Positions 15,727 through 23,317 of a stretch of 24,080 bases of DNA are shown here, piece after piece; the stretch's first letter is position 1, and each line of letters begins with the position of its first letter. Made by a program: the position numbers and the translations under genes. Below the pieces are notes generated by a model that ran no database searches, was not told the DNA's origin, and saw only the letters and a list, made by a program, of their open reading frames with translations. Source of the DNA: a virus; UHGV virus genome UHGV-1465484, one strand, 5' to 3'.

Positions 15727-18700
15727 ATGGGTAAAGGCAGCAGTAAGGGGCATACCCCGCGCGAAGCGAAGGACAACCTGAAATCCACGCAGCTGTTGAG
15801 TGCGATTGATGCCATCAGCGAAGGGCCGATTGAAGGTCCGGTGGATGGATTAAAAAGCGTGCTGCTGAACAGTACGCCGGTGCTGGACAGTGAGGGGAAT
15901 ACCAATATCTCCGGCGTCACGGTGGTGTTCCGGGCAGGTGAGCAGGAGCAGTCACCGCCGGAGGGATTTGAATCCTCCGGTTCCGAGACGGTGCTGGGTA
16001 CGGAAGTGAAATATGAAACGCCGATCACCCGGACCATCACGTCGGCAAACATCGACCGTCTGCGCTTTACCTTCGGTGTACAGGCACTGGTGGAAACCAC
16101 CTCAAAGGGAGACAGGAATCCGTCGGAAGTCCGCCTGCTGGTTCAGATACAGCGTAACGGTGGCTGGGTGACGGAAAAAGACATCACCATTAAGGGCAAA
16201 ACCACCTCGCAGTATCTGGCCTCGGTGGTGGTGGATAACCTGCCGCCGCGCCCGTTCAATATCCGGATGCGCAGGATGACGCCGGACAGCACCACAGACC
16301 AGCTGCAGAACAAAACGCTCTGGTCGTCATACACCGAAATCATCGATGTGAAACAGTGCTACCCGAACACGGCACTGGTCGGCGTACAGGTGGACTCGGA
16401 GCAGTTCGGCAGCCAGCAGGTGAGCCGTAATTATCATCTTCGCGGGCGCATTCTGCAGGTGCCGTCGAACTATAACCCGCAGACGCGACAATACAGCGGT
16501 ATCTGGGACGGAACGTTAAAACCAGCATACAGCAACAACATGGCCTGGTGTCTGTGGGATATGCTGACCCACCCGCGCTACGGCATGGGGAAACGTCTTG
16601 GTGCGGCGGATGTGGACAAATGGGCGCTGTATGTCATCGGCCAGTACTGCGACCAGTCAGTGCCGGACGGCTTTGGCGGCACGGAGCCGCGCATCACCTG
16701 TAATGCGTACCTGACCACACAGCGCAAGGCGTGGGATGTGCTCAGTGATTTCTGCTCGGCGATGCGCTGTATGCCGGTATGGAACGGGCAGACGCTGACG
16801 TTCGTGCAGGACCGACAGTCGGATAAGGTGTGGACCTATAACCGCAGTAATGTGGTGATGCCGGATGATGGCGCGCCGTTCCGCTACAGCTTCAGCGCCC
16901 TGAAGGACCGCCATAATGCCGTTGAGGTGAACTGGATTGACCCGAACAACGGCTGGGAGACGGCGACAGAGCTTGTTGAAGATACGCAGGCCATTGCCCG
17001 TTACGGTCGTAATGTCACGAAGATGGATGCCTTTGGTTGTACCAGCCGGGGGCAGGCACACCGCGCCGGGCTGTGGCTGATTAAAACGGAACTGCTGGAA
17101 ACGCAGACCGTGGATTTCAGCGTGGGCGCAGAAGGGCTTCGCCATGTGCCGGGCGATGTTATTGAAATCTGCGATGATGACTATGCCGGTATCAGCACCG
17201 GTGGTCGCGTGCTGGCGGTGAACAGCCAGACCCGGACGCTGACGCTCGACCGTGAAATCACGCTGCCATCCTCCGGTACCACGCTGATAAGCCTGGTTGA
17301 CGGAAGTGGCAATCCGGTCAGCGTGGAGGTTCAGTCCGTCACCGACGGCGTGAAGGTAAAAGTGAGCCGTGTTCCTGACGGTGTTGCTGAATACAGCGTA
17401 TGGGGGCTGAAGCTGCCGACGCTGCGCCAGCGACTGTTCCGCTGCGTGAGTATCCGTGAGAACGACGACGGCACGTATGCCATCACCGCCGTGCAGCATG
17501 TGCCGGAAAAAGAGGCCATCGTGGATAACGGGGCGCACTTTGACGGCGAACAGAGTGGCACGGTGAATGGTGTCACGCCGCCAGCGGTGCAGCACCTGAC
17601 CGCAGAAGTCACTGCAGACAGCGGGGAATATCAGGTGCTGGCGCGATGGGACACACCGAAGGTGGTGAAGGGCGTGAGCTTCCTGCTTCGCCTGACCGTG
17701 GCAGCGGATGACGGCAGTGAGCGGCTGGTCAGCACGGCCCGGACGACGGAAACCACATACCGCTTCACGCAACTGGCGCCAGGGAACTACAGGCTGACAG
17801 TCCGGGCGGCAAATGCCTGGGGGCAGCAGGGCGATCCGGCATCGGTATCGTTCCGTATTGCCGCACCGGCAGCGCCGTCGCGGATTGAGCTGACGCCGGG
17901 CTATTTTCAGATAACCGCCACGCCCCATCTTGCCGTTTATGATCCGACGGTACAGTTTGAGTTCTGGTTCTCGGAAAAGCGGATTGCGGATATCAGGCAG
18001 GTTGAAACCACAGCCCGCTATCTTGGCACGGCGCTGTACTGGATAGCTGCCAGTATCAATATCAAACCGGGCCATGATTATTATTTTTACATCCGCAGTG
18101 TGAACACCGTTGGCAAATCGGCATTTGTGGAGGCTGTTGGCCAGCCGAGTGATGATGCATCCGGCTATCTGGATTTTTTCAAAGGCGAGATAGGGAAAAG
18201 CCATCTGGCTCAGGAGCTGTGGACGCAGATTGATAACGGTCAGCTTGCGCCTGACCTGGCTGAAATCAGGACGTCCATTACGGATGTCAGCAATGAAATC
18301 ACGCAGACCGTCAATAAGAAACTGGAAGACCAGAGTGCGGCAATTCAGCAGATACAGAAGGTTCAGGTTGATACAAATAATAACCTGAACAGCATGTGGG
18401 CTGTGAAGCTGCAGCAGATGCAGGACGGACGCCTTTATATCGCGGGTATTGGTGCCGGTATTGAGAACACCCCTGACGGCATGCAGAGTCAGGTGCTGCT
18501 GGCGGCGGACAGGATTGCGATGGTTAATCCTGCGAATGGCAACACAAAGCCGATGTTTGTTGGTCAGGGCGATCAGATATTCATGAACGAAGTGTTCCTG
18601 AAATATCTGACGGCTCCCACCATTACCAGCGGCGGTAATCCTCCGGCATTTTCCCTGACACCGGACGGGCGGCTGACGGCGAAAAATGCCGATATCAGCG

Positions 18701-19206
18701 GTAGCGTGAATGCGAACTCCGGGACGCTCAACAACGTCACGATTAACGAGAACTGTCGGGTTCTGGGAAAACTGTCCGCGAACCAGATTGAAGGCGATCT
18801 CGTTAAAACAGTGGGCAAAGCTTTCCCCCGGGACTCCCGTGCACCGGAGCGGTGGCCATCAGGGACCATTACCGTCAGGGTTTATGACGATCAGCCGTTT
18901 GACCGGCAAATTGTTATTCCAGCGGTGGCTTTCAGCGGTGCCAGACATGAACGGGAGAATAGCGATACTTATTCGTCATGCCGCCTGATAGTGAAGAAAA
19001 ACGGGGCTGAAATTTATAACCGAACGGCTCTGGATAATACTCTGATTTACACGGGTGTTATTGATATGCCTGCAGGCAGTGGCGTAATGACACTGGAGTT
19101 TTCTGTATCAGCATGGTGGGTAAATGGCTGGTATCCCACAGCAAGTATCAGCGATTTGCTGGTTGTTGTGATGAAGAAAGCCACTGCAGGCATCACGATT
19201 AGCTGA
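15727..19206 (+). CDS. J: Central tail fibre / host specificity protein gpJ, with a divergent C-terminal receptor-binding region
   Basis: 1159-aa ORF; the first ~800 residues agree closely with lambda J as recalled ([24 protein letters not shown]...); the remaining ~350 residues are homologous but clearly diverged and 27 residues longer in total. Confidence 0.95.
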
Positions 19207-19273: not shown

Positions 19274-19873
19274 ATGCGTAAATTATGTGCTGTTATTCTG
19301 TCCACAGTAGTCTGGCTGGTCGCCGCTGGTACGCCAGCGAGCGCAGCAGAGCATCAGTCCACACTAAGCGCCGGGTATCTTCAGACCCATACTGATATGC
19401 CCGGCAACGATGACCTGAAGGGCATTAACGTGAAATACCGTTATGAATTTACGGACACGCTGGGGCTGGTGACGTCATTCAGTTATGCCAATGCCAAAGA
19501 TGAGCAAAAAACGCATTACAGCGATACCCGCTGGCATGAAGATTCAGTGCGTAACCGCTGGTTCAGCATGATGGCGGGGCCGTCTGTACGCGTGAATGAA
19601 TGGTTCAGTGCTTATGCGATGGCAGGTGTGGCTTACAGCCGTGTTTCGACTTTTTCCGGGGATTATCTCCGCGTAACTGACAGCAAGGGGAAAACGCACG
19701 ATGTGCTGACCGGAAGTGATGACGGTCGCCACAGCAACACGTCTCTGGCGTGGGGGGCTGGCGTGCAGTTTAACCCGACCGAATCCGTGGCCATTGATAT
19801 TGCTTATGAAGGCTCCGGCAGTGGTGACTGGCGCACTGACGGTTTCATCGTGGGTGTCGGTTATAAATTCTGA
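19274..19873 (+). CDS. lom: Lom-family outer membrane beta-barrel protein (Ail/Lom/PagC family)
   Basis: 199-aa ORF with N-terminal signal peptide (MRKLCAVILSTVVWLVAAGTPASA) and a C-terminus ...IAYEGSGSGDWRTDGFIVGVGYKF that matches lambda Lom from memory; RBS GAGAGG upstream; flanked by terminators on both sides. Confidence 0.9.
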   Translation: MRKLCAVILSTVVWLVAAGTPASAAEHQSTLSAGYLQTHTDMPGNDDLKGINVKYRYEFTDTLGLVTSFSYANAKDEQKTHYSDTRWHEDSVRNRWFSMMAGPSVRVNEWFSAYAMAGVAYSRVSTFSGDYLRVTDSKGKTHDVLTGSDDGRHSNTSLAWGAGVQFNPTESVAIDIAYEGSGSGDWRTDGFIVGVGYKF

Positions 19874-19900
19874 TTAGCCAGGTAACACAGTGTTATGACA

Positions 19901-19926
19901 GCCCGCCGGTTCAGGCGGGCTTTTTT
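19901..19926 (+). terminator. Rho-independent terminator after lom
   Basis: GCCCGCC-GGTTCA-GGCGGGC followed by TTTTTT at 19901-19926. Confidence 0.7.
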
Positions 19927-19931
19927 GTGGA

Positions 19932-22322
19932 GTGGATAGGGCAGCAGTAAAAATCTCAGGTGTGCGGAAAGATGGTGCGGGAGAACCAATACAGAACTGC
20001 ACTATTCAACTGAAGGCAAAGCGTAACAGCACCACGGTACTGGTGAACACGGTGGCCTCTGAAAATCCTGATGAAGCCGGGCGTTACAGCATGGATGTTG
20101 AGTATGGCCAGTACAGCGTCACCCTGCTGGTTGAAGGTTTTCCGCCTTCACATGCCGGGACCATTACCGTCTATGAAGGCTCCAGACCAGGTACGCTGAA
20201 TGATTTTCTCGGTGCCATGACGGAAGATGATGTCATGCCGGAGGCATTGCGTCGTTTTGAACTGATGGTGGAAGAAGTGGCACGCAACGCCGAAGCCGCC
20301 TCTCAGAGCGCAGCGGCGGCAAAGAAATCCGAAACTGCAGCGGCATCATCAAAGAACGCGGCGAAAACCTCAGAAACGAATGCAGCTAATAGTGCACAGG
20401 CGGCAGCGACCTCAAAGACTGCATCGGCAAACTCCGCGACAGCAGCCAAAAAATCAGAAACCAACGCGAAAAATAGCGAGACAGCCGCAAAGACGAGCGA
20501 AACCAACGCAAAGTCCAGCCAGACGGCAGCGAAAACCAGCGAAACGAATGCCAAAGCCAGTGAAACTGCGGCAAAAAACAGCCAGGTTGCAGCAGCCCAA
20601 AGCGAGAGCGCGGCAGCCGGTTCTGCGACTTCAGCAGCTGGATCAGCAACTGCTGCGGCTAACAGCCAGAAAGCTGCGAAGACGAGTGAAACTAACGCAA
20701 AGTCCAGCCAGACGGCAGCGAAGACCAGCGAAACGAATGCCAAAACCAGCGAAACTGCGGCGAAAAACAGTCAGGATGCAGCAGCCCAAAGCGAGAGTGC
20801 TGCAGCTGGTTCTGCAAGCGCGGCGGCTGCTTCTGCCATTGCATCAGCCAACAGTCAAAAAGCTGCAAAAACCAGTGAAACCAACGCAAAGGCGAGCGAG
20901 ACTGCGGCTGCTAACTCGGCGAAAGCATCAGCTGCAAGCCAGACGGCTGCAAAAGCAAGTGAAGACGCAGCCAGGGAGTACGCAAGCCAGGCAGCAGAGC
21001 CGTATAAATATGTCTTACAGCCGCTTCCTGATGTGTGGATACCGTTTAACGATTCACTGGATATGATTACGGGCTTTTCGCCATCATATAAAAAGATTGT
21101 TATTGGTGATGATGAAATAACAATGCCTGGCGACAAGATTGTAAAGTTTAAACGCGCATCAAAAGCAACTTACATTAATAAATCTGGTGTGCTGACAGAG
21201 GCTGCAATCGATGAACCTCGCTTTGAAAAGTATGGATTGCTGATTGAAGGGCAGCGTACAAACCTGTTAATAAACAGCACAAATCCATCAAAATGGAACA
21301 AGTCATCAAATATGATTTTAAATACATCAGGTGTAGATGATTTTGGTTTCCAGTACGCAAAATTCACATTAAAACCAGAAATGGTGGGGCAAACCTCAGC
21401 CATTTCTATTGTCACAGTATCTGGAAGCAAAGGATATGATGTTACCGGCGATGAAAAGTATGTAACTATCTCATGCAGGGTACAAAGTGGGACTCCAAAT
21501 TTAAGATGTCGATTACGATTTGAAGAATATGATGGATCTACCTACAAATTCCTGGGTGATGCTTACTTAAATATGACAGATTTATCGATTGATAAAACTG
21601 GCGGCGCTGCAAGTCGTATTACTGCAAGGGCTGTTAAAAATGAAGCAAGCAAATGGATTTTCTTTGAGGCAACAATTAAGGCACTTGATACAGAAAATAT
21701 GATCGGTGCGATGGTGCAATATGCACCACCAAAAGGGGGAAGCACTGGTGCAGATGATTATATTTATGTTGCAACTCCTCAGGTCGAAGGCGGTTCGTGC
21801 GCTTCTTCGTTTATTATTACTGAGGCAACGCCAGTCACAAGAGCCAGTGATATGGTGAATATACCAACAAATAACAATATCGGTACACCACCTTTAACAT
21901 TTCTAGCTGAAGTTCATACAAACTGGAACGAAACGCCAAATGCAGCACCACGAATTTTTGATACCAGTGGTGGGAGCACAACTCCGGGTCAATATATAAG
22001 TGTTGCTATTAGTTCAACATTATTTCCTGGTGTTACGATGCACAATAAAAACGGTAGTACAGTAGCCGCCGTATCGCCAGTATTATTTGAACAAAAATCT
22101 GTTCTTGGATTTGTTTTAAATGAATCTGGTAATGTGCATTTCGTTAGCAATGCCCAGCATGGGACTCCTAAAACCACGGATCATGTCGGTGTTAAATCTG
22201 GTTATTTCTTCAGGATTGGGGGACAGACTAATAGCGGTCTACGTCATCTTTTCGGTCACATTCGTAATTTTCGTATATGGCATAAAGAATTAACCGATGC
22301 ACAAATGGGAGAGGTAATATAA
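19932..22322 (+). CDS. stf: Side tail fibre protein: lambda-Stf-like N-terminus and Ala/Ser/Thr heptad shaft fused to a non-lambda C-terminal tip with a LamG/ConA-like lectin signature
   Basis: 796-aa ORF; first start in frame is GTG at 19932 (exact start uncertain); residues ~5-120 resemble lambda Stf from memory; residues ~120-335 are KTSETNA-type heptad repeats; the remainder is AT-rich and ends in ...HIRNFRIWHKELTDAQMGEVI. Confidence 0.85.
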   Translation: MDRAAVKISGVRKDGAGEPIQNCTIQLKAKRNSTTVLVNTVASENPDEAGRYSMDVEYGQYSVTLLVEGFPPSHAGTITVYEGSRPGTLNDFLGAMTEDDVMPEALRRFELMVEEVARNAEAASQSAAAAKKSETAAASSKNAAKTSETNAANSAQAAATSKTASANSATAAKKSETNAKNSETAAKTSETNAKSSQTAAKTSETNAKASETAAKNSQVAAAQSESAAAGSATSAAGSATAAANSQKAAKTSETNAKSSQTAAKTSETNAKTSETAAKNSQDAAAQSESAAAGSASAAAASAIASANSQKAAKTSETNAKASETAAANSAKASAASQTAAKASEDAAREYASQAAEPYKYVLQPLPDVWIPFNDSLDMITGFSPSYKKIVIGDDEITMPGDKIVKFKRASKATYINKSGVLTEAAIDEPRFEKYGLLIEGQRTNLLINSTNPSKWNKSSNMILNTSGVDDFGFQYAKFTLKPEMVGQTSAISIVTVSGSKGYDVTGDEKYVTISCRVQSGTPNLRCRLRFEEYDGSTYKFLGDAYLNMTDLSIDKTGGAASRITARAVKNEASKWIFFEATIKALDTENMIGAMVQYAPPKGGSTGADDYIYVATPQVEGGSCASSFIITEATPVTRASDMVNIPTNNNIGTPPLTFLAEVHTNWNETPNAAPRIFDTSGGSTTPGQYISVAISSTLFPGVTMHNKNGSTVAAVSPVLFEQKSVLGFVLNESGNVHFVSNAQHGTPKTTDHVGVKSGYFFRIGGQTNSGLRHLFGHIRNFRIWHKELTDAQMGEVI
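20290..20980 (+). repeat. Internal coding repeat region of stf: 21-nt (7-aa) heptad units, including two ~140-bp direct copies (20487-20626 and 20676-20815) spaced 189 bp apart
   Basis: The two copies were aligned by eye and are about 90% identical; at protein level AAKTSETNAKSSQTAAKTSETNAK(A/T)SETAAKNSQ(V/D)AAAQSESAAAGSA occurs twice. Confidence 0.8.
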
Positions 22323-22603
22323 TGCGAGACTTAATTATCAAATTCACAGACAAGGCCGACTTTTCGGCCTTTATGGATAGCATTGGTTATGACGATGACG
22401 AGGTGATGCAGAACAATGTTCTCATTGATGTGATAGGTAACGTGTACAAAGAAACCGGGGAAATTACTGAAGATGGCGAGCCGGTATGTGTTAAGGAAGA
22501 CGGATATTTTGTAAACGTGCGCATCATTAATGATGTGAAAACACCGTCAATATTCGATGAATACGCGGTTGTTGTTGAGCATCAACTTCGTGGCTGGATG
22601 TGA
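22322..22603 (+). CDS. Hypothetical acidic 93-aa protein, translationally coupled to stf
   Basis: ATG at 22322 overlaps the stf stop (TAATG); open frame of 93 codons in the same operon orientation; no family recognised. Confidence 0.6.
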   Translation: MRDLIIKFTDKADFSAFMDSIGYDDDEVMQNNVLIDVIGNVYKETGEITEDGEPVCVKEDGYFVNVRIINDVKTPSIFDEYAVVVEHQLRGWM

Positions 22604-22612
22604 GGGAGACAA

Positions 22613-23317
22613 ATGGCTACATCGACAGTAATTCCTGGAGATATCACCACGCTAAAGGGAGATGTCAGTAAAACTAAGGAAGATATTTCCTCAATTAACG
22701 GAAAAGTATCAACGCTTCAGATTGATATGACCAGTGCAAAGCAGGATATCAGCACCAGATACACAAAAACTGAAGTTGATAATAAGCTGAAAAACAAAGT
22801 GGAAGCGAACGATCTGGAAAGCGGTCGTTATGGCGGTGATTTTTACCCGCTGACTGGCCGCGAAGCGTTTTATTTATGGGGGTTGGGCACGACTACTGCT
22901 GCGGCAAACCTTTATCTTAATCCTGACCCTGCAATTTCGTCTGTACTGCGGTCCACATCGTCTATCCGCTATAAACATTCAGTAGAGACGATAGATTCAG
23001 AGCACGCCGATGTCATTTTCAGGATGCGCCCTGTGTGGTACAGGTCGCAATGCGAAAATGACAGGCGTGACTGGGGGTTCTACGGATTGATTGCCGAGGA
23101 AGTAGGAGAAATTGCCCCTCAGTTTGTACACTGGCGACCAGCTAACGAAGATGATGCTCCTGAAGCTATTTCCAGCAATGGCCTTGTTGCCGAAGGTGTA
23201 ATGTACGAACGTCTGGTTGTTCCACTGATTCACCATATCCAGAAGCTGACTGAAAGAGTTGATGAACTTGAGTCAGAATTAAAGTTGTTATTAACTTCCC
23301 GAAGCGATATCGGATAA
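22613..23317 (+). CDS. Short fibre-like protein: N-terminal 11-residue-periodicity repeats plus C-terminal peptidase-S74-type intramolecular chaperone domain
   Basis: ATG at 22613 preceded by GAGGGAG; 234 aa; S116-S-I-R-Y-K121 matches the S-x-x-R-x-K Ser/Lys dyad spacing of S74 chaperone domains; GFYGLIAEEVGEIAPQFV ... LVVPLIHHIQKLTERVDELESELKLL is the typical S74 C-terminal pattern. Confidence 0.75.
   Translation: MATSTVIPGDITTLKGDVSKTKEDISSINGKVSTLQIDMTSAKQDISTRYTKTEVDNKLKNKVEANDLESGRYGGDFYPLTGREAFYLWGLGTTTAAANLYLNPDPAISSVLRSTSSIRYKHSVETIDSEHADVIFRMRPVWYRSQCENDRRDWGFYGLIAEEVGEIAPQFVHWRPANEDDAPEAISSNGLVAEGVMYERLVVPLIHHIQKLTERVDELESELKLLLTSRSDIG

Follow-up and report, generated by a model that had tools for sequence, protein, structure and literature searches.

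A nine-heptad tandem repeat in the predicted shaft of a lambda-type side tail fibre gene

The window analysed here is a 24,080-nucleotide (nt) stretch of viral DNA, UHGV virus genome UHGV-1465484, and the element in question is a 189-nt tandem repeat inside its lambda-type side tail fibre gene, stf. In the list of open reading frames (ORFs), stf occupies 19932-22322 and encodes 796 amino acids (aa) from a GTG at 19932; it lies on the plus strand, as do all features of the window described below unless stated otherwise. The encoded protein fits PHROG 1419 ('tail protein') end to end (Stf residues 4-796 against profile positions 1-793 of 793, 1382 bits). Its N-terminal collar, or tail-attachment, domain (aa 5-134; 19944-20333) matches the Pfam family PF08400, 'prophage tail fibre N-terminal', at 2.5e-65, and aa 5-97 match residues 2-94 of the lambda 'Tail fiber protein' in PDB entries 9e7m and 9mgh (E = 1.8e-47). 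The distal part (21060-22319), which is presumed to bind the receptor, includes an NF048003 'spike fiber' domain (aa 437-638; 21240-21845; NCBIfam, 2.2e-16). Positions 20295-20987, between collar and distal part, are predicted from sequence to encode the proximal shaft of the fibre.

The shaft comprises 33 consecutive heptads (aa 122-352) in the stf frame, with a register that is unbroken over 231 aa. The original prediction, made from the letters alone, had described a shaft of 7-residue units, and the three that it cited (KTSETNA, KSSQTAA, and KASETAA) are all present. Heptads of the consensus A-A-K-x-S-E-T alternate with heptads of the consensus N-A-K-x-S-Q/E-T, such that the second position is Ala in 30 of 33 heptads, the fifth is Ser in 32 of 33, and the overall composition is 36% Ala and 19% Ser. 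Tandem Repeats Finder reported periods of 21 and 42 nt in the shaft besides the period of 189 nt. An AlphaFold2 (AF2) monomer model of aa 95-373, computed from the single sequence, is helical over aa 98-234 and 240-354 with a mean predicted local distance difference test score (pLDDT) of 80, the sole break in the helix falling at Gly-containing heptads at the end of the first repeat unit. By homology with Stf of Ur-lambda and with pb1 of phage T5, the shaft is probably a trimeric coiled coil; Ala would occupy heptad position a and Ser position d of a long, trimeric, alpha-helical assembly. At ~0.15 nm per residue, the run of 231 aa would extend over ~34 nm and one unit of the repeat described below over ~9.4 nm.

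The possibility that the opposite strand or a different frame carries a functional element was considered and rejected. The long ORFs at 20380-21066 (plus strand, 228 aa), 20303-20743 (minus strand, 146 aa), and 20386-20649 (minus strand), together with others, are stop-free by-products of a biased repeat; such ORFs cover 20303-21136 in other frames and on the minus strand, and gene callers may mis-annotate them. No inverted repeats were found. Heptads of the AAKTSETNAKASET type were also observed in a 400-aa protein (P0070) that has precomputed Pfam hits to PF05662, the YadA-like coiled stalk of trimeric autotransporter adhesins, and in hypothetical proteins of Comamonas (P0085 and P0088). 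These matches suggest that this type of heptad shaft is not confined to the fibres of enterobacterial phages.

Superimposed on the heptads is a longer period. Tandem Repeats Finder detected a repeat of 189 nt in 2.3 copies over 20475-20902, with 83% matches and no indels, and a separate repeat search returned a 189-nt pair at 20433-20621 and 20622-20810, likewise at 83%. Delimited by the former and described by 30 diagnostic sites, the array comprises a first unit (U1; 20475-20663; aa 182-244) of 189 nt, 63 aa, and nine heptads, a second unit (U2; 20664-20852; aa 245-307) of 189 nt that is 84% identical to U1, and a partial third unit (U3; 20853-20902) of ~0.3 copy, at the end of which the array stops and beyond which the shaft sequence diverges. 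In the phage IdasGreatGrand, the 50 nt that follow its single unit match U3 at 50 of 50 positions. U1 and U2 differ at 30 of 189 nt, and the codon differences between them comprise 17 that are synonymous and 9 that are non-synonymous. The longest exact in-register block shared by the two units is 29 nt (20505-20533, equivalent to 20694-20722) and two blocks of 21 nt rank next; a 21-nt exact block lies at 20588-20608 (equivalent to 20777-20797), where draft contigs end or begin, as described further below.

The original prediction had singled out two stretches of ~140 bp, about 90% identical and 189 bp apart, and this was accurate: 20487-20626 and 20676-20815 are identical at 128 of 140 positions (91.4%) at an offset of exactly 189. 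The two cores are thus real, but they understate the extent of the duplication, which covers 2.3 units at a lower, whole-unit identity. When 20290-20980 was compared with itself, much as in the dot-plot of 20250-21000 that the prediction had proposed, the expected off-diagonal was present, with 65% identity at an offset of 189 and 45-53% at every other multiple of 21. In 2,000 shuffles of the 33 heptad-sized blocks of 21 nt, the best 140-nt window averaged 91.8 +/- 3.8 matches and never exceeded 113, compared to the 128 observed. This indicates that the 189-nt period is a true higher-order duplication rather than a product of heptad low complexity, and the offset scan and the shuffles together rule out chance periodicity from that source. 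Because 189 nt divides evenly into codons (63) and into heptads (9 x 7 residues), the duplication keeps both the reading frame and the coiled-coil register.

The two-unit shaft is widespread in Escherichia coli. Of 5,426 complete E. coli genomes, 1,002 match at least 80% of the 831-nt stretch 20230-21060 within one place, and the full-coverage matches that were listed, which include CFT073, EC958, and B-lineage strains, are all ungapped at 92-100% identity. The median number of places matching the shaft in these complete genomes is two per genome. The two-unit shaft was also found, ungapped, in the isolated phages 2G7b, PhiR49_1, ev207, Tritos, and HannyBb. A locus sample was drawn from 80 IMG/VR loci and reference loci, of which 43 carry both flanking anchors; these anchors were surveyed by BLAST, which replaced a regular-expression-based survey of the shaft that had missed 22 loci. 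The exact spacing of the window recurs at 37 of the 43 anchor-bearing loci, while five are shorter by 315 nt and one is shorter by 189 nt. Among 28 haplotypes, mean identity was 96.9% between U1 copies and 95.8% between U2 copies, compared to 85% (range 81-89%) between U1 and U2. The observation that units at the same position are more alike across loci than U1 is to U2 suggests that the duplication predates the divergence of these alleles and has been stably inherited. Among E. coli prophages, shafts of two units are the usual form and are passed on stably.

All length differences that were seen (-21, -189, and -315 nt) are multiples of 21 nt. The five loci that are shorter by 315 nt comprise L080, a relative that lacks the duplication, and L024-L027, in which the distal shaft is unrelated (the sequence is shown for L024 and L025). 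The shafts of L024-L027 and L080 are unrelated to one another, with a charged set of more canonical heptads in the former and an unduplicated Ala/Ser set in the latter, and are nevertheless of the same length, both being 15 heptads shorter than that of the window between the anchors equivalent to 20290 and 20941. This may reflect coincidence or a preferred fibre length. The same length class also holds many lambda-like phages in GenBank (phage 21, ev017, and the Lambda_ev series). A rearranged form was encountered in complete E. coli genomes H48-H55, which carry a 100%-identical copy of 20325-22322 whose start, only at query position 394, falls among the first heptads of the shaft. There the gene is annotated as a 'phage head spike fiber domain-containing protein' and adjoins a terminase small subunit/nohD gene, which suggests that a prophage was rearranged with a breakpoint among the heptads.

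The original prediction regarded the repeat as a substrate for recombination and slippage that could shorten or lengthen the fibre. In its strongest form, this idea would make the array a programmed or adaptive length switch, resembling a contingency locus, that toggles fibre length often through slippage or unequal recombination and so matches the thickness of the surface layers of hosts. Exact one-unit variants do occur in nature on three genetic backgrounds, the frame and the heptad register are kept in all variants, and the shafts of Stf type in relatives range from ~118 to ~366 aa (~17 to ~52 heptads). However, units that are 84% identical and share at most 29 nt of exact match are poor substrates for slippage, the two-unit form is constant at 37 of 43 loci and in ~1,000 complete genomes, only two genomes among the ranked matches listed have a single unit, and orthologous units are far more alike than paralogous ones, which indicates long-term stable inheritance. 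A simple-sequence contingency locus has many short and near-identical units that change frequently in copy number; the array of the window has 2.3 diverged units with a constant copy number. No three-unit array was detected among the surveyed loci or among 96 database proteins, and the top 30 matches to a synthetic U1-chimera-U2 query were all in two pieces that span 578 nt, which is the normal two-unit form. We consider a length switch to be quite improbable. Shortening by one unit, in three relatives, and a chimeric unit bear out one half of what had been predicted, lengthening has no counterpart among the forms found, and the instability that the prediction implied is at odds with the constancy of length and with a divergence of ~16% between the units.

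The three relatives with a single unit are IdasGreatGrand, which carries the same gene at 96.7% identity without exactly 189 nt and with no other indel, and the chromosomal prophages of E. coli AVS0655 and MSB1_4I, both RefSeq complete genomes; the distal region of AVS0655 is clearly different. The single units of all three are of U1 type at the first six diagnostic sites (sites 0-5; unit positions 3-29) and of U2 type from unit position 59 onwards, and the few exceptions to the U2 type fall at sites that are also polymorphic among the U2 alleles of two-unit arrays. In all three, the switch from U1 to U2 falls inside the 29-nt exact block. This polarity suggests that the single units arose through unequal crossover between U1 and U2 and do not represent an ancestral, unduplicated unit. 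Placing the deletion crossover at the 29-nt block itself was considered and given up: exact identity extends over as much as 125 nt in homogenised arrays, and neither the parental array nor the exact site can be fixed.

Among ranked matches listed from ~1,050 genomes, at least two true single-unit shafts were identified. An attempt to count the variants that lack 189 nt by identity bands of a junction query did not separate them cleanly, as homogenised two-unit arrays also score at least 95%; only the matches that reached the last base of the query (H201 and H228) proved to be true deletions.

Exchange between units is also visible in arrays that retain both. Conversion-like tracts, in the form of contiguous runs of four to six switched diagnostic sites, were identified in U1 of L005 and L008 and in U2 of L009, L016, and L052; the probability that k switched sites among 30 are contiguous by chance is 1e-3 for k = 4 and 4e-5 for k = 6. 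At L084-L087, the units are 90-95% identical with exact matches of up to 125 nt. U1 of these loci has nine sites of U1 type followed by sites that are mainly of U2 type, and U2 reads 2(3)1(6)2(21) in three of the four.

The homogenised arrays bear on the alternative that the single-unit shaft is ancestral, that two-unit shafts are derived, possibly more than once, and that the variants lacking 189 nt are relics rather than deletions. U2 of L084-L087 resembles the start of the partial third unit and then the array's own U1, and the high identity of the two units is what a recent re-duplication would be expected to produce. Relics would, however, be expected to show interspersed character states, and instead the polarity is clean in all three single units, the stray U1 calls sit at sites that are polymorphic in U2, and the single unit of L088 is the same as the U2 pattern of L004 from site 6 onwards. 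Moreover, the units of the common arrays are 16% diverged and so the main duplication is old. An ancestral single unit is therefore very unlikely in our view.

Collectively, these observations are best accommodated by an old, in-frame, mostly stable duplication of nine heptads that preserves the register of a known type of fibre shaft and is subject to rare loss of a unit and some concerted evolution; we assign this reading a probability of roughly 85%. A block of nine heptads (63 aa, 189 nt) would have been duplicated in tandem long ago, adding ~9.4 nm to a shaft that would act as a spacer, with the collar anchoring the fibre to the tail and the distal, receptor-binding module held away from it. 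Homologous recombination out of register would then proceed at a low rate, either within one array or between several stf-bearing prophages of one cell. Its products would be short tracts of gene conversion and partly homogenised arrays on the one hand and, on the other, an occasional unequal crossover that deletes one unit and leaves a shaft ~9 nm shorter that still works, one such variant being an isolated phage. Recombination of this kind is the probable mechanism, and shafts of both lengths are probably functional.

Several points weigh against this account. Cores of Ala and Ser are atypical for coiled coils, and the AF2 monomer, modelled from a single sequence, folds the helix back on itself at the Gly-containing heptads. 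The window's own copy of stf may not be expressed at all, because its canonical start codon reads AGG. The direction of the change, from two units to one, is suggested by the polarity of the diagnostic sites rather than by a rooted phylogeny, and the frequency of ~2 in 1,000 for variants lacking 189 nt among complete genomes is a lower bound. The pattern at L084-L087 fits either extensive conversion or a single-unit shaft that was duplicated again through the partial third unit. In addition, because the median genome has two places that match the shaft, the partner in an exchange may be another prophage rather than the same array.

A more ambitious extension of the old, stable duplication would treat the 63-aa block as a quantised length module, in that lambda-, T5-, and T1-type phages would share a distal receptor-binding cassette and tune its reach by heptad blocks through out-of-register recombination, with one-unit and two-unit shafts as functionally distinct, selected alleles. 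We hold this to be unlikely; if it were true, the two alleles would be matched, for example, to the depth of O-antigen or capsule rather than being a neutral length polymorphism.

The repeat has left its mark on draft assemblies. 'Partial' Stf fragments abound in the protein database, some of them standing for hundreds of sequences, and a large protein search returned mostly proteins of at most 492 aa, most of them partial, which are informative about contig breaks and of little use as a census of full-length shafts. The N-terminal fragments P0036 and P0037 stop inside U1 at …NSQVAAAQSESA and the C-terminal fragments P0041 and P0042 start inside U2 at QDAAAQSESAAA…. Contigs that encode P0036 (L091-L093, from NCBI third-party draft assemblies) end at the window equivalent of 20611, 3 nt past the shared 21-nt block, and contig L094 (958 nt, encoding P0041) begins at 20772, 5 nt before the U2 copy of that block. 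Contig ends at a shared block are probably the signature of a de Bruijn graph that was broken at the tandem repeat, with the caveat that the contigs are from different samples and that other prophages of the same genome could contribute. Fragment proteins of this kind comprise P0035-P0037, P0041, P0042, P0074, and P0080, and further large clusters stop immediately ahead of U1 (…AAKKSETNAK[N]).

Such breaks raise the question of whether the duplication or the single-unit variants could themselves be errors of assembly, or the 189-nt period a chance product of low-complexity heptads. Draft assemblies evidently struggle here, with many partial proteins and contigs terminating at a block common to both units. 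Against this, the shuffles of heptad blocks fall well short of the observed match (113 at most versus 128), both units, with the 30 sites that tell them apart, recur in ~1,000 complete genomes and in several isolated phages, and the single-unit form is found on three different haplotypes whose distal regions differ. Modern assemblers would not be expected to collapse two units that are exactly identical over no more than 29 nt. We regard an artefact as extremely unlikely. The original prediction had named the repeat as a classic source of assembly collapse; no collapse was seen, and for the same reasons (30 differences between units, an exact match of at most 29 nt, and units that recur in complete genomes) it is unlikely. 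Another of its proposed checks, a comparison of shaft length among relatives, showed that repeat number is not the same in all of them, in that single-unit variants exist.

The surroundings of stf are those of a lambda-like late operon. Its ORFs are lambda-like in size and order: the two terminase subunits, small and large, come first, followed by head and tail genes and then by a homolog of J (15727-19206; 1,159 aa). A gene of the Ail/Lom family (19274-19873; PF06316 at 3.5e-126) lies between J and stf, and the order J-lom-stf is also annotated in E. coli TCM3e1 and IdasGreatGrand. A strong hairpin that resembles an intrinsic terminator (19900-19926; agcccgcc-ggttca-ggcgggct followed by a T run) is situated between lom and stf, directly 5' of the ribosome-binding site of stf. 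In E. coli CFSAN018748, the interval between lom and stf holds an IS200C transposase gene (L084 1425-1883) and J is frameshifted; a second prophage of this strain carries an ordinary, diverged two-unit shaft.

A prophage of E. coli TCM3e1 is 99.9% identical to the window in the stf region. Its stf homolog (L002 4007-6088, equivalent to 19938-22019 of the window) is called a pseudogene 'missing C-terminus' by RefSeq/PGAP and has a reading frame that is open to the equivalent of 22322; in IdasGreatGrand and AVS0655, the gene is annotated as full-length. The C-terminal ~100 aa of Stf seem to be poorly represented among reference proteins.

The window and TCM3e1 differ at only three positions in ~8.1 kb, all within 45 nt, all changed to G in the window, and all altering the canonical protein: 19939 T>G, which removes the start codon, 19966 T>G (Leu>Arg), and 19983 A>G (Lys>Glu). 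The canonical start at 19938-19940 is accordingly AGG in the window, whereas every one of the 36 relatives that share its leader, TCM3e1 included, has ATG there. The ribosome-binding site GGAG lies at 19929-19932 and is overlapped by the GTG at 19932, the sole in-frame start nearby. Either stf is translationally crippled in the window or these are sequence errors. Laboratory lambda carries a frameshift in stf, which a crippled copy in the window would recall.

The shaft ends at a conserved junction with the distal module (EPYKYVLQPLPDVWIPFNDSL; 20997-21059), a module boundary that is common to the fibres of T5-like and T1-like phages. The junction follows different shafts in L024-L027, L080, BUCT632, and tunus, and in T1-like and T5-like phages the matching DNA begins at query position ~1044. 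The fibres of BUCT632 and tunus each have their own anchor and a heptad shaft, followed by the junction of the window (…EPY..LQPLPDVWIPFNDSL…), and their distal modules are 60-67% identical to that of the window in aa and 81-84% identical in nt.

The sharing extends to the genes that follow. The second gene, orf93 (22322-22603), matches PHROG 1361 at 2e-43, a family of unknown function, and its homologs, ORFs of ~92 aa at 41-48% identity, follow the fibre gene in BUCT632 and tunus. The third, orf234 (22613-23317), encodes a short, stand-alone, fibre-like protein whose N-terminal part is coiled and which contains an S74 intramolecular-chaperone domain (PF13884, 4.5e-06); it is 57% identical to a 245-aa protein of tunus. 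Its match to the PHROG 3299 profile (1,385 positions) covers the final 237 of these (1147-1383; 7.9e-140), and positions 216-379 of the same profile match the heptad shaft of Stf; orf234 looks like either a second, small fibre or the C-terminal end of a long pb1-like fibre that has become detached. The cassette of three genes (fibre, ~92-aa ORF, and S74-type fibre gene) occupies 19932-23317 in the window and is also present in BUCT632 and tunus (L089 3912-8329; L090 3369-6373). Its distribution suggests that temperate and virulent phages have exchanged modules.

Heptad coiled-coil shafts have already been described for fibres of both the Stf type and the pb1 type, and the duplication adds nothing categorically new to them; in the literature, we found no paper that describes the 189-nt duplication specifically, and a 'heptad' in PMC13119297 concerns the spike protein of SARS-CoV-2 rather than Stf. 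There is correspondingly little new biology in a fibre whose architecture is that of an established PHROG family present in about one fifth of complete E. coli genomes. The practical value is modest. That the shaft changes by whole heptads only, and that a 63-aa block can be dispensed with without destroying the phage, is useful for engineering fibre length or for swapping distal modules at the PLPDVWIPFNDSL junction. Short-read assemblies commonly break in the repeat and many database entries are fragments, and copy number should therefore be taken from long-read assemblies. Automated annotation is likewise unreliable at stf, with spurious ORFs in other frames and pseudogene calls.

Size-variable heptad coiled coils are familiar from the streptococcal M protein and from the stalks of trimeric autotransporter adhesins, in which in-frame blocks are gained and lost through intragenic homologous recombination. 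As in those proteins, the blocks of the window are whole multiples of the heptad and length can change without breaking the frame or the register. In contrast, the repeats of the window are few (2.3) and diverged (84%), length change is rare, and no sign of immune- or host-driven size variation is evident.

The closest comparison is with Stf of lambda itself. In Ur-lambda, a study by cryo-electron microscopy and tomography divides gpStf into a collar domain (residues 1-91), a proximal coiled coil (residues 102-393) of a trimeric fibre, and a hinge followed by a distal part (PMC12617516). The window agrees with lambda in the position of the gene after J and lom, in a homologous N-terminal collar (1.8e-47), and in an Ala/Ser-rich heptad shaft, which in Ur-lambda is a trimeric coiled coil in the cryo-electron microscopy/AlphaFold3 (AF3) model and in the window is predicted from sequence and a monomer model. 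It differs in that its shaft is shorter (~245 aa, counted from linker to junction, versus 292 aa in lambda) and carries the 63-aa tandem duplication, and in that its distal half is unrelated to the gp37-like, OmpC-binding tip of lambda. Furthermore, stf is followed by orf93 and the gene with an S74 domain in the window, whereas it is followed by tfa in lambda. No match to the Tfa family was detected downstream of stf in Pfam, NCBIfam, or PHROGs; a downstream Tfa gene is a feature of lambda itself and not of the wider Stf family.

T5 pb1 is organised along similar lines, with an anchor (residues 1-40), a coiled-coil domain (residues 41-218), and a fibre domain (PMC12750041). The alignment of Stf aa 159-350 to pb1 residues 40-229 (8hqz_d) is weak (E = 0.048), and patches of the shaft DNA match T5 ltf at 78.7%. 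Unlike in pb1, the N-terminus of the window's Stf is a lambda collar that is unrelated to the pb1 anchor, and the S74 chaperone that is fused to the pb1 fibre is encoded in the window by a separate ORF of 234 aa. What the window shares with pb1, with the T5-like BUCT632, and with the T1-like tunus is a design in three parts, in which an anchor specific to the phage is followed by a coiled coil of Ala/Ser heptads and then by a distal fibre. The BUCT632 fibre is 60% identical in aa over Stf aa 111-796, the alignment starting only at aa 111, and its shaft is 38-44% identical. Before the same junction, BUCT632 has ~47 heptads, the window 33, and tunus ~15. Different anchors and shaft lengths joined to the same junction and distal module suggest that the shaft is an adjustable spacer between a phage-specific anchor and an exchangeable distal module.

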